DNA of 64,000 nt. It comes from an uncultured Gemmatimonadaceae bacterium (GTDB lineage Bacteria; Gemmatimonadota; Gemmatimonadetes; Gemmatimonadales; Gemmatimonadaceae). The stretch spans positions 2,144,001 to 2,208,000 of the forward strand of contig OY970320.1 of the NCBI GenBank assembly GCA_963716745.1, written 5' to 3'. Shown one piece after another: positions 18,696 through 23,427 of this stretch (position 1 is the first letter of the stretch; each line of letters starts with the position of its first letter). The position numbers and the translations under genes are program-made. A model generated the notes under the pieces. The model ran no database searches, was not told the DNA's origin, and saw nothing but the letters and a program-made list of their open reading frames with translations.

Positions 18696-18956
18696 CTACC
18701 TTGGTATCTTCTCTCCCACCGCCCGCTCGAGATCGCGCACCAGCCCGATGATGCGGCGCATGATGTCGATCATGCGATCCACCGCCGCGCCCTGCTCGGG
18801 ACCCAGTCCCGGCTCGGTGCGCAGTAACTGCGCCTCGGCCAAGAGCGCGGCCAGCGGATTGTTGAGCTGATGCTGCACGAGCGCCGTCAGCCGTTGCAAC
18901 TCAGGCGACGAGAGCGGCTCCTTCCCATCGGACGAGGCTTCTTTGGACGGCGTCAC
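18696..18956 (-). CDS. Stand-alone HisKA (dimerization/phospho-acceptor) domain protein, 86 aa
   Basis: H-box VQHQLNNPLAALLAEAQLL followed by a second helix; strong SD gaggagg before GTG at 18956; no ATPase domain. Confidence 0.75.
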   Translation of the reverse strand: MTPSKEASSDGKEPLSSPELQRLTALVQHQLNNPLAALLAEAQLLRTEPGLGPEQGAAVDRMIDIMRRIIGLVRDLERAVGEKIPR

Positions 18957-19001
18957 GCGCGGTGCCTCCTCACGGGTCAGTACTATATCTTCAGGACACT
19001 C

Positions 19002-19602
19002 ATGGGTTCCCCGAGGATACCGGGCGGCACGGCCGCCGAGATCGCGCGCGCTGTCGAGAGCTACCGCGAGACGAACGATTTCTCCGTGCTGCTCGACGAA
19101 TTGCTCGCCATCTCCGCGGATGCCGACCTCGACGAACTCATCGCAGCGGTGGAGCCGTATCGCACCATTCCGGAGATCGCGGGCCCCGTGTACGAACGCG
19201 TGGTCGCCGAGCGGCCCAACGATGCGCGCGCGCTCGTGACGCTCGCGAACTCGTACTGGCTGAGCGGCCGCGGCGCGGAGGCGACGGGTGAGCTTGCTGC
19301 GCGCGCGATGGCCGCCGATCCGGAGAATCGTGCCGCGTGGCATTCTGTGGGCCCTCACTGAGCCGGAGCCGCGCGAACGCATGATGCGCTGGAAACAAGT
19401 GACGGAACGATTCCCCACCGACGATCTCGCGCGCGCGACGCTCGCCGATGCCGCCGCGAGCGTCGCCGGCGCCGAGCGCGATCGCGAAGCGCTGCAACTC
19501 GCGATCCGTTCGTACGATCAGCTGCTTCGAACCGCCGGCGCCCCGGAACAGAAGGCGGCCCTTGAGTCGGCACTCACTACTCTGCGGGCGTGGAATCTCT
19601 GA
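19002..19602 (+). CDS. Helical/TPR-like hypothetical protein (frameshift near 19345)
   Basis: MGSPRIPGG...YERVVAERPNDARALVTLANSYW...AADPENRAAW, continuing LWALTEPEPRERMMRW in another frame. Confidence 0.7.
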
Positions 19603-19691: not shown

Positions 19692-20474
19692 TCAGTGAAA
19701 GTGGAACATGAACGGCATTTGCACCCACTGCTGCACGGGACAGCCGCCGGAGAGCGCCGGTGTCCAACGATATTGTGCGACCGCCGCGATCACGGCGTCA
19801 ACGTATTCCTTGTGTTTCCCCTCTACCGCGCGAACGCTGTCCATCACCGGGCGCCCGTCGCGATCGACGAGCACTTGCACCACCACGTCATCCTCGACGC
19901 GCGCGTCCTCCAGTTTCTTTGGCCACTTGGGATAGATGTTCGTCGCGATGATGTGCGCCGGCCGGTCGATGGGGTTGAGCGGGCGCAGCGCGATGAGCCG
20001 CATCGGATAGAACCCGAGCGACGGATCGAGCGAGAGTTGGATGCGCATCTGCACGGTATCGCGCCCATCGGTGGAGTAGAAGCTCACTTTGTCCGCGCCC
20101 ATCGCGGCGGCAGCGTTGAGCAGCGCCGAGTCCAACCGGGCGTCCGCGGTCGTGAGCTTGAGATACACGCGGTCGGTGCGGCCGTCCGCGCTCTCGGTGA
20201 ATCGCACTTCGCCGAGCATCGGCATGAAGCCGCCCGTCGCGCCGCCGCGCAATTTCACCATGGTCGCGGCGGCCGCCTCCATGGAGCTCAGGTCCATCGG
20301 CTGGATGAACCGCGCGACGTACTCCTGGAGAAGCGAACCGCGGATCCGCCGCAGATCGGCGCGCTCCGTCGTATCCTGCGGGATCGACGCGTAGACGGCC
20401 ATGAGGGAACTCACGCCGTGCGGCTTTCCGTCTGGGCCGCACTGCGCCGGAGCCGCAGTGCTGCCCAGGCTCAT
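19692..20474 (-). CDS. TonB C-terminal domain (energy transducer TonB family) protein
   Basis: YPKWPKKLEDARVEDDVVVQVLVDRDGR...YRWTPALSGGCPVQQWVQMPFMF; start codon uncertain. Confidence 0.75.
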   Translation of the reverse strand: MSLGSTAAPAQCGPDGKPHGVSSLMAVYASIPQDTTERADLRRIRGSLLQEYVARFIQPMDLSSMEAAAATMVKLRGGATGGFMPMLGEVRFTESADGRTDRVYLKLTTADARLDSALLNAAAAMGADKVSFYSTDGRDTVQMRIQLSLDPSLGFYPMRLIALRPLNPIDRPAHIIATNIYPKWPKKLEDARVEDDVVVQVLVDRDGRPVMDSVRAVEGKHKEYVDAVIAAVAQYRWTPALSGGCPVQQWVQMPFMFHFH

Positions 20475-20498: not shown

Positions 20499-20612
20499 AA
20501 CTACAGACCTAGACGTTAGACCTAGACGTTAGAAGGCGGACGCTAGACGTGAGATACTAGATGTGTTCGCAGTTGTATTCTAAGTCTAGGTCTAGCGTCT
20601 AGGTCTGCACTT
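20499..20612. repeat. Family A heptamer palindrome
   Basis: aactacagacctagacgttagacctagacgttag...tctaggtctagcgtctaggtctgcactt. Confidence 0.85.
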
Positions 20613-21003
20613 AAGCTCGTGCCCTTCGCAGCGCCATGTCCTCCAGGACACCGAGGAGCGCCGCCAGATCGAACGGCTTCGCGACCAGCACGCACCCGCA
20701 CGCATCGATCAGGTCCATCGCGTGATCGCTCGCGTCGCCCGTCGTGAATACCGTGCGGCCGCGCAATTGGGGTTGCAGGCTCGACGCCAGCTCGAACAGC
20801 ACGTCGCCGCGCATGTCGGGCACCCGCAGGTCCACGACCATGAAATCGAAATGCTCGCTGCGCAGCAGGGAGAGCGCTACCTCGCCGCTCTCGACCGCGC
20901 GCACATCGTACCCGCCGCGCGTGAATGCGATCGTCAGTGCACGGCAGATGGACGGTTCGTCGTCCACCACCAGGATCCGCGCACGCTCATTGTACAGCCT
21001 CAT
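20611..21003 (-). CDS. Single-domain response regulator (receiver only)
   Basis: ILVVDDE, DFMVVDLRVPDMRG (phospho-Asp), VFTTG, AKPF; no output domain. Confidence 0.92.
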   Translation of the reverse strand: MRLYNERARILVVDDEPSICRALTIAFTRGGYDVRAVESGEVALSLLRSEHFDFMVVDLRVPDMRGDVLFELASSLQPQLRGRTVFTTGDASDHAMDLIDACGCVLVAKPFDLAALLGVLEDMALRRARA

Positions 21004-21787
21004 CGTCCTTCGCTCCGTGACGGCGCATCATCGCCGTTAGCACTTCCATGAACCGATCGGGCGGCAACCGCTCCCGAAGGGTCGACGGGGAGTGGCCCGT
21101 CGTCGCCCGCACTTGCCGCGAGAACACGCGCGGCGAGGCATACCCCAACTTCCTCGTGATGTCTTCCAGCAGGAACCCTTTCTCGCCCAGGTAGTGGTAC
21201 GCCTGCGCCAGCCGAGCGGTGAAGATCAATACTCTCGCGGATGCGAGTTCCTGCTTCACCAGCCACCGGTCGAGATTCCGGCGCGTCATGCCCGCCGCGT
21301 GGGCGAGCGATTCGACGCCTTCGATCAGGTGCGGCGATTCGTACATGCGCATGAGCGCCCGTTGCAGCAGCGGCATCGCGCCTTCCAGCCGGTCCATGAT
21401 CGACTCGAGCGCTTCGCCACCCAGCCTTCGCGCGGGCAAACGCTCGAGCAGATCCTTCAATCGCCGCGGTTCATCATCGAATCCACGGAGCACCACGTGA
21501 CGCACGCCGCGCTGCGCGAGTGTCACGGTCGTCCGCAGCGTTTCCGCCGCGAGCGACGTGTAGACCACCACCGGCAACGTCGGATATCGCTCCATCAACT
21601 CGTACAGCGGCTCGATCTCCGTGCTGCCATCGACCCGAGGGTCGACGACGAGCACATCCACCGGCGACCGTCGCACGAGAGTGATGAGCTCGGTCCAACC
21701 GATGACACCGGTCAGACCATGCTCATCGCCCAGCACGCGGCGGAGATAGACGAGGACGGGAGGAGAGAGGCGGGCGGCGACTTCCAC
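20987..21787 (-). CDS. AraC-family regulator with atypical receiver-like N-terminal domain
   Basis: C-terminal LEDITRKLGYASPRVFSRQVRATTGHSPSTLR AraC HTH; N-terminal VDVLVVDP / PVVVYT receiver-like strands. Confidence 0.85.
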   Translation of the reverse strand: MEVAARLSPPVLVYLRRVLGDEHGLTGVIGWTELITLVRRSPVDVLVVDPRVDGSTEIEPLYELMERYPTLPVVVYTSLAAETLRTTVTLAQRGVRHVVLRGFDDEPRRLKDLLERLPARRLGGEALESIMDRLEGAMPLLQRALMRMYESPHLIEGVESLAHAAGMTRRNLDRWLVKQELASARVLIFTARLAQAYHYLGEKGFLLEDITRKLGYASPRVFSRQVRATTGHSPSTLRERLPPDRFMEVLTAMMRRHGAKDDEAVQ

Positions 21788-21803
21788 GGGGGGACACTAA
21801 GGT

Positions 21804-21829
21804 TGTCCTAAAAAGGCACCTTACTGTCC
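21804..21829 (+). promoter_or_regulatory. Candidate AraC-type direct-repeat operator TGTCC-N16-TGTCC
   Basis: tgtcc at 21804 and 21825 (21-bp period); the same arrangement occurs upstream of the TPR gene. Confidence 0.45.
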
Positions 21830-21912
21830 GAAAATGCGTGTTTGCCCCGCCGAATGCCACGGTACCTTGCGCTCGAGTGGAATTCCGGTCCCAACCCTCG
21901 CGCGAGGCTATC

Positions 21913-22047
21913 ATGATCCGTCGCCTGTTCGCCCTTCTCGTTCTCGTCGCCGTCGCGTCCACCGCTTCGGCCTGCACTTCACCCACCGCGCCCCACGCGG
22001 ACTGTGCCGTGACGGGCGGAAGTGGGAACTGCTCGGTCAGTCGCTGA
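21913..22047 (+). CDS. 44-aa exported peptide with signal peptide and C-terminal Cys loop
   Basis: SD gagg then ATG: MIRRLFALLVLVAVASTASA-CTSPTAPHAD-CAVTGGSGNC-SVSR; basic n-region, hydrophobic h-region, ASA|C cleavage site; GC3-rich codons; followed by a hairpin. Confidence 0.8.
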   Translation: MIRRLFALLVLVAVASTASACTSPTAPHADCAVTGGSGNCSVSR

Positions 22048-22069
22048 CCCTCACTCCATAGCACGACTC

Positions 22070-22101
22070 GAAGGGCCGCGGGTGCCAACCCGCGGCCCTT
22101 C
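22070..22101. terminator. Hairpin between convergent peptide and TPR genes
   Basis: gaagggccgcggg tgccaa cccgcggcccttc, perfect 13-bp stem. Confidence 0.8.
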
Positions 22102-22110
22102 GTGCATCGC

Positions 22111-23355
22111 TCACGCTCTGATCCCGGCCAGTTCCCTCAGTTTCTGGACGCCGGCCGCCGCTTCCTCCACCATCGCCGACGCGGGCGCCGGCACCGGCGC
22201 GCTGATCGGCACGCCGTCCTTCAAGTCCCCCAGCGCCTGCTCGGCGTGGAAGACGATCTGATTCAAGTGATGCTGCTGCGCGATCTCAAGCGCGCGCTCG
22301 AACGCCACGCGCGCTTGCTCCGGGCGGTCGAACATGCGGCAGCCCTGGCCCGCGTAGAAGAAATACCACGCTGAGAGCACCGGCGGCATCGGCGCGGTTG
22401 ACAGTTCACGGCGATACTGCTCGAAAACGGGCTCGAAGCGATCCGCGGCCGCGAGCTCCATGAGATTGATCGTCGCCTGCCATCGCGTGAATTGCTCCTG
22501 CGCCGTGGCCGCGAGCACGAGATTCGCATCGCGCGCCGCCGTGCGCAGTCCGATCTCGAAGAAGCTTGCCGCGAGGTCGGCCAGCACGCGGTCGCGTGAC
22601 GCGTCGCTGCGCACATCCTGCAGCGCCATGTATTGCATCGCGATCGCGGCGTCGTAGTCGCCGCGACGGTGCGCGGTGTGCGCGCGGTCCTGCAGCGCCA
22701 TCGCGCGAATCTCCATCATCCCGAGTTGCTCGGCGTCGAGGATCGTCTGGTCGAGGATCGACTCAGCCTCGGGGAGGTTGCCGCGGTCGGTGAGCACGTT
22801 CGCTTCGCCCATGCGCGCCTTGAGCATGCTCATGATGTCGCCGGTGAGCGCCGCCACTTCGCCGGCGCTGCCGTAGGCGGCCCACGCGTCGTCCCACCGC
22901 GCGAGCGTGCGCGAGCACGCGGCGATCATGAGATTCGCGTGGATCACTGAGTCGGCGTCGTTGAGCGGATGCGCGTGCGCGAGCACCGTGCGGTAGACAT
23001 CCGCGGCGAGCGCCCATTCGCCGTCCAGCTGCAGCGCGCGCGCGTACGCCATGAGGCGCGGCGTGACGATGCGCACGCTCGCGAACGCGCCGTCGGGATC
23101 CATCGCCTCGAGCACCTTGGCGAGCAGCGCGCGCCCGGTGGTGCCGGGCTCCATGGCGTCGACGGCCTCGCGTACCGCGCGCATGCCCCATGCGTCGGCC
23201 GCCGCGACGTCGGGCCCTTCCATCACCCAGGCATCGACGAGACGCAGCGTGACGAGTCCCGCGCTCACGGCGCGGAACGATGGGCTGCCCTCCTCGAGTT
23301 CGGCGAGGCGCTCGAAGTAGGGGAGATGAGAGAGCGGGATCCCGGAACGATTCAT
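22111..23355 (-). CDS. Cytoplasmic tetratricopeptide-repeat protein (about 414 aa; no signal peptide, no HTH seen)
   Basis: Serial TPR-like helices (AYARALQLDGEWALAADVY, GEANVLTDRGNLPEAESIL, RAHTAHRRGDYDAAIAMQ, AGQGCRMFDRPEQARVAFERAL); ATG 23355 preferred, ORF extends to 23391. Confidence 0.8.
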   Translation of the reverse strand: MNRSGIPLSHLPYFERLAELEEGSPSFRAVSAGLVTLRLVDAWVMEGPDVAAADAWGMRAVREAVDAMEPGTTGRALLAKVLEAMDPDGAFASVRIVTPRLMAYARALQLDGEWALAADVYRTVLAHAHPLNDADSVIHANLMIAACSRTLARWDDAWAAYGSAGEVAALTGDIMSMLKARMGEANVLTDRGNLPEAESILDQTILDAEQLGMMEIRAMALQDRAHTAHRRGDYDAAIAMQYMALQDVRSDASRDRVLADLAASFFEIGLRTAARDANLVLAATAQEQFTRWQATINLMELAAADRFEPVFEQYRRELSTAPMPPVLSAWYFFYAGQGCRMFDRPEQARVAFERALEIAQQHHLNQIVFHAEQALGDLKDGVPISAPVPAPASAMVEEAAAGVQKLRELAGIRA

Positions 23356-23401
23356 GGAGCGCAAGCTTGGCACGGGCGACATCGCCATCAAGCTCGAATC
23401 A

Positions 23402-23427
23402 GGACATCCGGGGGACGAATTAGGACA
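23402..23427 (-). promoter_or_regulatory. Candidate operator TGTCC-N16-TGTCC upstream of TPR gene
   Basis: ggaca at 23402 and 23423; minus strand reads aatgtcctaattcgtcccccggatgtcctgattcg. Confidence 0.45.

Follow-up and report, generated by a model that had tools for sequence, protein, structure and literature searches.

A conserved small lipopeptide gene linked to AraC and TPR regulator genes in Gemmatimonadota and its possible role in a Rap-Phr-like circuit

Introduction

The 44-residue open reading frame (ORF) at positions 21913..22047 (+) of a 64,000-nucleotide stretch from the genome of an uncultured Gemmatimonadaceae bacterium (contig OY970320.1, positions 2,144,001 to 2,208,000; hereafter the window, to which coordinates refer unless a genome or locus is named) is a real and conserved gene, inherited together with two regulator genes across many Gemmatimonadota. 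Its partners encode a tetratricopeptide repeat (TPR) protein and an AraC-type regulator, and a conserved direct repeat lies before the peptide gene as well as before the TPR gene. The peptide gene is unannotated, and among the literature matches listed, which cover titles and the beginnings of abstracts, no description of the four-gene regulatory cassette was found. The gene likely encodes a small lipoprotein whose variable C-terminal tail would serve as a signal between cells, comparable to peptide signals known from Gram-positive bacteria. With a probability of roughly 0.5, the cassette forms a circuit resembling Rap-Phr in a diderm host, in which the AraC protein would drive the peptide and TPR genes and the released peptide tail would be re-imported to bind the TPR protein. 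An earlier interpretation of this DNA, made from its letters without database searches (the sequence-only reading), had singled out the peptide but neither the AraC and TPR genes on its two sides nor the pair of operators, from which the context of the peptide comes.

Conservation of the peptide gene

The window's genome comprises 3.29 Mb on a single contig with a completeness of 89.8%. For comparison, 182 loci were gathered and then screened with a TPR profile, yielding 150 distinct TPR-bearing frames, 145 of them including the C-terminus; 137 TPR genes had both the C-terminus and at least 300 nt of downstream flank. The window is included in the locus counts, as is a single row (L006) whose genome is marked unpublished (G012); no conclusion rests on that row. 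Peptides were called by an in-house lipobox rule, so that the lipobox in all 132 distinct peptides is built into the detection filter; that most loci pass the filter is not built in. Directly downstream of 128 of the 137 homologous TPR genes a convergent lipobox ORF of 39-66 amino acids was found, compared with 3/130 for control intervals taken upstream. Recovery by TPR match score amounted to 99/99 at 400 bits or more, 20/21 between 250 and 400 bits, and 9/17 below. Behind the peptide, an AraC gene is located in 121 of 133 loci with sufficient flank. A reciprocal search of 151 genomes with the peptide profile gave 47 best matches, 46 of which adjoin TPR matches (coordinates compared by hand), while the remaining one adjoins an AraC gene at a contig end. 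Paralogous TPR genes within one genome mostly have a peptide of their own (e.g. L018/L143 and L163/L164/L165).

The ratio of non-synonymous to synonymous substitution rates (dN/dS) of the peptide gene is 0.25 over 30 non-overlapping pairs, with 0.28 for the signal, 0.07 for the tether, 0.25 for the loop and 0.38 for Cys-free tails. Purifying selection on homologues, which the sequence-only reading had listed among its checks, is thereby observed. A spurious ORF was considered as well and rejected on the basis of the linkage compared with the controls and the dN/dS value.

The gene starts with ATG 21913, ends with TGA, and is nested in a 69-amino-acid ORF call with GTG start (21838-22047). Its Shine-Dalgarno sequence GAGG (21904..21907, +) lies 5 nt upstream of the ATG, and 113 of the 121 upstream regions have GAGG or GGAG ahead of the start; start, ribosome binding site and nesting within a longer call had all been recognized correctly from the letters. 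The absence of the identical sequence among 15 billion predicted proteins fits the description of the peptide as unannotated, and neither Pfam nor NCBIfam gave a family for it. Homologues gave only weak NCBIfam matches, mostly to lipoprotein families, and the look-alikes listed in the protein atlas all score below 0.9. Such matches to small-lipoprotein profiles (best E 7e-4) probably reflect the signal sequence.

In a survey of 301 sampled Gemmatimonadota genomes, the TPR family was present in 142 (E<=1e-15, five candidates scored per genome) and the AraC partner in 116 (E<=1e-40). The TPR family comprises 847 cluster representatives at E<=1e-30. Among named relatives of the TPR gene, 78 of 80 records belong to Gemmatimonadota and not to Bacillota, the host phylum that defines the RRNPP/RRNPPA group. 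Two cassette-bearing records are titled Casimicrobiaceae and Actinomycetota (L116 and L125); since their TPR proteins share 47-50% identity with that of the window, the same range as Gemmatimonadaceae records, these titles are likely due to mis-binning or mislabelling. Viral contigs gave 28 pattern matches, none of which was confirmed as a TPR relative, and in the window's genome a second copy of the TPR gene was not found.

Lipoprotein signal and tether

Residues 1-20 (21913..21972, +) constitute the signal peptide, with a basic N-region, a hydrophobic core and a lipobox ending at Ala20, and are predicted to be processed by signal peptidase II (SPII). Cys21 (codon 21973-21975), the predicted lipid anchor, opens a tether of positions +1 to +7 ending in T-A-P (21973..21993, +), which is the most constrained part of the peptide. 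The hallmarks of a lipoprotein, i.e. the N-region, the core and a lipobox with an invariant Cys at +1, are present, and in 27 aligned peptides Met1, Ala20, Cys21 and Pro27 are invariant. The sequence-only reading had placed the signal peptide correctly and had weighed cleavage by signal peptidase I (SPI) against SPII cleavage at a non-canonical lipobox. The evidence points to a lipoprotein precursor with predicted SPII processing at Cys21 rather than to SPI, so that the lipid-tethered option is favoured. The lipobox itself is not non-canonical but normal for this genome, because Ala occupies position -1 in 86 of its 109 predicted long lipoproteins and in 131 of the 132 distinct peptides. Cleavage by SPI, which disfavours a bulky residue at -3, was judged less likely in view of the invariant Ala20-Cys21 and of L, I, F or M at -3 in 54/132 peptides. 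Lgt and two LspA proteins are encoded in the window's genome.

A tether motif [TS][AG]P occurs within +2 to +11 in 121/132 peptides, with Pro at +7 in 98 of those 121. The same motif at the same distance is found in 14 of 109 ordinary lipoproteins of the genome, compared with 0-4 in five intervals further along, and is perhaps a phylum-level sorting or glycosylation motif.

Cysteine pair and variable tail

The Cys31-Cys40 loop (22003..22032, +; codons 22003-22005 and 22030-22032) has the spacing C-x8-C, in agreement with the sequence-only reading, and is predicted to form a disulfide ring around a putative 8-residue ligand core. Besides Cys21, exactly two cysteines are present in 97 of the 132 peptides, none in 35, and never one or three, whereas independent placement would predict about 45 peptides with one (kin are not independent). 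Mapped on a quickly built maximum-likelihood tree comprising 124 TPR proteins, from which 8 peptides with incomplete TPR were left out, the cysteine state changes 10 times, 7 of these changes being forced by well-supported branches, and both cysteines always appear or disappear together. Because the extra cysteines are all-or-none, a disulfide between Cys31 and Cys40 is supported, and the pair is probably closed in this predicted manner; since 35 homologues lack both cysteines, the ring is optional. Of the disulfide-closed product put forward earlier, the bond is hence probable and its necessity is not upheld, with at least 7 gains or losses. Across homologues the cysteines are 6-11 residues apart, and in 86 of 97 peptides the second is located at most three residues from the C-terminal end. 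VKOR was found in the window's genome and DsbB was not (89.8% complete). The Gly-rich GGSG of the loop, also noticed before, exists in the window but is not fixed, as two congeners carry GNSG.

Ringed and linear tails are alike in their core, which is hydrophobic and then rich in Gly and Ser. One ringed member (L009) stands within an otherwise Cys-free clade and has a near-identical core; of 26 Cys-free tails, 21 resemble the ring core of the closest ringed relative more than shuffled sequences do, with L009 as comparator in 12 of the 26. Five homologues contain a tandem tail motif of 7-9 residues in two or three copies, and the loop core of the window is similar to the unit HTIGSGN present three times in L172. 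Tails differ between TPR clades, in contrast to the fixed signal and tether. Separately, three paralogous genes for ringed lipopeptides stand in tandem at locus L220 (2606-3396; G147:C32), and the 6 kb fetched there gave no match to TPR or AraC.

AraC regulator and predicted operators

Divergent from the peptide gene, a 266-amino-acid regulator is encoded at 20987..21787 (-), consisting of an atypical receiver and an AraC double helix-turn-helix (HTH) (HTH_18, E 1.5e-12). Both features of AraC/XylS activators, the double HTH and tandem sites of 21-bp period overlapping the -35 region, can be recognized, the sites being predictions. Canonical receivers possess an acidic pair after beta1, a phospho-Asp, Thr/Ser and Lys. 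The N-terminal domain has the receiver fold, with Asp49 in 106 and Thr77 in 96 of 108 sequences; the acidic pair is missing at 5-9, as is a conserved Lys at 98-107, and the domain is thus not a canonical receiver.

The predicted AraC-family operator beside the peptide gene (21804..21845, +) is a 21-bp direct repeat with half-sites starting at 21804 and 21825. Such a repeat is present upstream of the peptide gene in 101 of 120 distinct regions, and the window's copy is the best site of the genome with 50.8 bits, compared with 13.6 for the next and 7.8 for shuffled sequence. It is overlapped by the -35-like hexamer (21841-21846) of a predicted peptide promoter (21841..21868, +), whose -10-like hexamer is located at 21863-21868; the form TTTAC..TAnnnT has a 16-nt spacer in all 55 regions matching the pattern. 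A scan of 21600-22300 for sigma-70 consensus promoters and terminators found nothing. Between the convergent peptide and TPR genes lies a G+C-rich hairpin of 34 nt (22069..22102, no strand assigned; -38.4 kcal/mol, z -6.0), a probable terminator although it is devoid of a U-tract.

A second direct-repeat operator (23386..23427, -; half-sites starting at 23427 and 23406) faces the TPR gene and precedes its promoter hexamers (-35-like 23391-23386 and -10-like 23368-23363, -). This repeat was detected in 54 of 113 homologues, compared with 2 hits for the opposite strand, 0 within the gene and 0/565 for shuffles; taken alone, the window's TPR-side site scores 15.1 bits, near the shuffled background. 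The TPR -10-like hexamer ends 7 nt ahead of ATG 23355 (23363-23355, -), which suggests that in this genus the TPR gene is transcribed without a leader.

Of columns 1-250, residue 173 of the AraC protein (in helix 169-178 of the model) showed the strongest tie to operator base 5, for either half-site. Asp is paired with C at base 5 of the first half-site in 28/28 cases, Tyr with A in one or both half-sites in 36/37, and Glu or Ala with GG in 22/22. The rule also applies to the TPR operator, for which the search was run with base 5 neutralised: Tyr goes with A in the first half-site in 17/18 cases and Asp with A in 0/29. Judging from sites and binding that are both predicted, the AraC protein probably drives the peptide gene and the TPR gene.

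TPR protein as putative receptor

Convergent to the peptide gene, with its stop 63 nt away, the TPR gene (22111..23355, -; likely start ATG 23355, ORF call reaching TTG 23391) encodes an all-helical protein of 414 amino acids, modelled with a predicted local distance difference test score (pLDDT) of 92.8. It matches TPR_12 (E 2e-10), has neither a signal peptide nor an HTH, and falls within the 250-500 amino acids of the cytoplasmic TPR proteins of RRNPP/RRNPPA systems. Structure searches placed LGN/Pins on top (Z 23.7 and 23.1), while Rap phi105, Rap pLS20 and RapH reached Z 20.1-20.2, level with unrelated TPR proteins. In structural alignments, Rap gave Z 20.2 (root-mean-square deviation 5.8, 297 residues aligned) and LGN Z 23.7 (5.4, 290 aligned); in Foldseek the first Rap entry occurs at rank 30. 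No RRNPP chain was found among the best 60 of 85 PDB sequence matches, a result with which remote homology is still compatible.

Arg150, Arg257, Asp261 and Asn298 are conserved at groove-facing positions, which were assigned by the TPR register convention and not by model contacts. Tail divergence follows the divergence of the TPR groove with a partial rho of 0.31 (49 non-overlapping pairs), in comparison to -0.10 for outer positions, -0.13 for core positions and -0.26 for the signal peptide as controls. The TPR protein is a plausible, putative receptor or anti-activator. A distant homologue of 644 amino acids (P0054) has the regions 2 and 4 of an extracytoplasmic function (ECF) sigma-70 factor fused ahead of the TPR family, which fits the TPR as a ligand-controlled regulatory domain.

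Wider neighbourhood of the cassette

Overlapping the AraC stop, a single-domain receiver of 130 amino acids (20611..21003, -) keeps the canonical phosphorylation residues and is present in all 42 of the 42 loci with at least 3.8 kb of flank. A small stand-alone HisKA ORF (18696-18950, -), resembling a dimerisation and histidine phosphotransfer domain and bearing the conserved His motif, has a match in 33 of these 42 loci at a loose threshold, where in some cases it makes up the end of a larger protein; the ORF and the receiver may act as a phosphotransfer pair. A 163-amino-acid TPR ORF (18870-19361, +) and a 104-amino-acid ORF without Pfam match (19288-19602, +) are each kept beside the cassette in 39/42 loci, and rho is next in 27/42. 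The chromosomal neighbourhood of the cassette is stable. A TonB_C-domain protein (19692-20474, -), an insertion that separates the receiver from the small TPR gene, was found in 0/42 long-flank loci and is for this reason probably lineage-specific. In agreement with the sequence-only reading, no modifying enzyme occurs among the nine neighbouring ORFs scanned against Pfam.

The window's genome contains a second receiver-AraC paralogue (L032, G000:C1:1436787-1437470) of 29% identity, around which neither a TPR match nor a lipobox peptide was detected within 1.5 kb; its neighbours are what we take to be an ornithine carbamoyltransferase-like ORF and pilin-like ORFs. Rearranged forms, in which the TPR and AraC genes share a strand, were observed at L228, with the lipopeptide upstream and a 616-codon TPR frame between two AraC matches, and at L222, with a divergent lipopeptide.

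Proposed circuit and alternative explanations

In the proposed circuit, the AraC protein would bind both repeats and activate the peptide and TPR genes. The precursor would leave via Sec, be lipidated at Cys21 and be cut by LspA, and outside the cytoplasm the tail cysteines would be oxidised, stapling the core of 6-11 residues. These three steps are well supported. In the later ones, a protease would free the tail from its tether, and an Opp/OPT-type transporter would import it into the reducing cytoplasm, where the ring would open and the core would bind the TPR groove. The unliganded TPR protein would restrain the AraC protein, perhaps also the single-domain receiver, until peptide binding frees the AraC protein. 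The resulting loops would be positive through the peptide and negative through the TPR protein, as in Rap-Phr-ComA. For release, import and de-repression, the support comes from analogy and weak covariation. An OPT-family transporter gene is present in the genome, unlinked to the cassette, as is an Opp-type operon. In a more specific form, which we regard as doubtful, Gemmatimonadota would have independently evolved a two-membrane Rap-Phr-like system, whose lipoprotein pheromone is stapled by a disulfide outside and unlocked by reduction on import and whose TPR anti-activator releases an AraC activator inducing signal and receptor; the ring, gained or lost repeatedly, would be a removable protective or redox-gating device.

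Several observations weigh against such a circuit. A lipid-anchored precursor would need cutting and passage of its tail across the inner membrane, and no protease or transporter gene was detected among the neighbours examined; the Opp/Dpp-type ATP-binding cassette (ABC) operon (G000:C1:2688174-2693900, -) is interrupted by several frame breaks, which may be indels of the assembly. The TPR fold is generic, with LGN above any Rap, and therefore does not establish RRNPP membership. The covariation with the groove is borderline, as 55 of 1000 random position sets equalled it, and the tail tracks the TPR protein barely better than the AraC protein (partial rho 0.25 vs 0.13, 45 pairs). In L029, L179 and L180 the cysteine pair precedes the repeated motif, so that the ring does not enclose the presumed ligand in every case. 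On the regulatory side, the TPR-side operator was not found in 24/24 loci of family f2, no clear third tandem site exists genome-wide, scores beyond the two cassette sites being at shuffled background, and the residue-173 rule has 1-3 independent changes behind it, which do not suffice for a sign test, and is thus suggestive but not significant. No peptide was detected at 9 of 137 TPR genes, eight of them distant (below 250 bits), and the window's peptide differs from its closest relative (L002) by 4.7 non-synonymous and 0.3 synonymous changes, which are small numbers.

The lipopeptide could instead be the output of the cassette, i.e. an AraC-induced envelope lipoprotein acting on a periplasmic or membrane target such as a sensor kinase feeding the receiver, with an ordinary structural disulfide and a TPR protein that senses something else. 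A lipid anchor would keep the product away from a cytoplasmic TPR protein, the tether motif is shared with the 14 ordinary lipoproteins, a canonical receiver and a small HisKA-type ORF are close by, and the groove covariation is borderline. We nevertheless hold this to be unlikely: no membrane-receptor gene is present among the neighbours tested across loci, tandem repeats of 7-9 residues and clade-specific tails suit a released ligand better than a folded effector, and the near one-to-one pairing with paralogous TPR genes would be left unexplained. These clade-specific tails and repeats, together with paralogous cassettes of distinct tails in one genome, also find no reason in a general export sensor, in which the TPR protein would bind the tail of unexported precursor and report the capacity of Sec, Lgt and LspA or the state of the envelope within a single cell, as export of ExsE is read by ExsC-ExsD-ExsA. 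This somewhat less probable scheme would require neither release nor re-import, an optional ring suits an off-switch in which the disulfide formed after export locks the tail inactive, and with its AraC activator, tandem 21-bp sites and co-induced partner the cassette is built like the ExsA system as outlined in the excerpted text of PMC12648661.

Two further sources of a signal appear very improbable. Enterococcal pheromones cCF10 and cAD1 are cut from lipoprotein signal sequences, and here too the precursor is a lipoprotein whose signal sequence is under purifying selection (dN/dS 0.28), so that the mature tail might be secondary; signal divergence, however, does not follow the TPR groove (partial rho -0.26), and repeats and paired cysteines are located in the tail. 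Marginally less probable again is a ribosomally synthesised and post-translationally modified peptide (RiPP), whose core would be modified by enzymes encoded elsewhere. A short, variable core rich in Gly, Ser and Cys does follow a conserved N-terminal part, and TPR proteins weakly match HaaT, the TPR model of cyclophane RiPPs, in 2 of 25 cases (best E 1e-4). Against this, the N-terminal part is a lipoprotein signal and not a leader, strict cysteine pairing suits a plain disulfide, HaaT is one of several generic TPR matches, and no tailoring enzyme was seen among the nine scanned ORFs or the conserved neighbours tested (the genome elsewhere was not searched). The RiPP-like ligand suggested in the sequence-only reading is not borne out, as the constant partners are regulators and not tailoring enzymes; the signalling role that it had also proposed is supported as probable.

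Significance

TPR-receptor peptide signalling inside the cell is described for Bacillota in the excerpted texts of PMC10075063 and PMC9765709. If the Rap-Phr-like circuit is true, a counterpart in a diderm phylum would extend TPR peptide signalling across an outer membrane, and, with the TPR family in 142/301 genomes, the cassette would represent an unannotated system for communication or envelope sensing that is widespread in a group little studied so far. The cassette offers defined ligand candidates (ring versus linear), a candidate receptor, a candidate activator and two predicted operators with a residue-base rule, and the all-or-none cysteine pair raises the question of redox-dependent signal activation.

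Comparison with known systems

With the small lipoproteins LptM, YgdI/YgdR, colicin lysis proteins and DUF4223, the peptide shares size, lipobox and weak profile matches, but none of them has the same tail or regulatory context. The Staphylococcus agr autoinducing peptide is likewise a small cyclic signal with autoinduction; its thiolactone is the product of AgrB and is sensed by a membrane kinase, whereas the ring described here is a predicted, optional disulfide and no AgrB-like gene occurs among the ORFs scanned. According to the excerpted text of PMC12648661, ExsA of Pseudomonas aeruginosa uses two sites 21 bp apart overlapping the -35 region, at -44 and -65. The ExsA-ExsD-ExsC-ExsE system, as that text presents it, resembles the cassette in combining an AraC-family activator on tandem 21-bp sites with a protein partner and a small exported protein, and differs from it by Sec/lipoprotein export, the TPR partner, the receiver-fold N-terminus of the AraC protein and the hypervariable small protein found here.

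In layout the cassette resembles Rap-Phr, the HTH-less branch of RRNPP/RRNPPA found in Bacillus and on its mobile elements (RapC/RapF-Phr-ComA, RapH-Spo0F, Rap pLS20 and Rap phi105), with a stand-alone cytoplasmic TPR protein of about 400 amino acids lacking an HTH, an adjoining short exported propeptide with a variable C-terminal core, and a probable target that is a distinct transcription factor or receiver. In the excerpted literature, unliganded Rap represses ComA (PMC4771773), duplicated pheromone cores, to which the tandem tail motifs of the five homologues correspond in pattern, occur in some RRNPPA propeptides (PMC11343458), and 211 of 2,734 RRNPPA propeptides with a predicted route use SPII (PMC9765709). 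The relaxed RRNPP_detector setting, as described in the excerpt of PMC10075063, looks for a TPR protein of 250-500 amino acids and an ORF of 10-100 amino acids with a secretion tag within 400 bp; the cassette fits this description with a peptide of 44 amino acids at a distance of 63 nt, its tag being called by the in-house lipobox rule. Unlike Rap-Phr, the cassette has a diderm host, a convergent arrangement of the two genes in which the peptide has a promoter of its own, a lipobox in all 132 peptides (defined by the filter), an optional disulfide ring and a receiver-AraC protein as putative target; moreover, LGN/Pins fit the TPR protein better than Rap does, and the best 60 of the 85 PDB matches include no RRNPP entry. 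The cassette is therefore best classed as a diderm system that may work like Rap-Phr, and not as a member of RRNPP.
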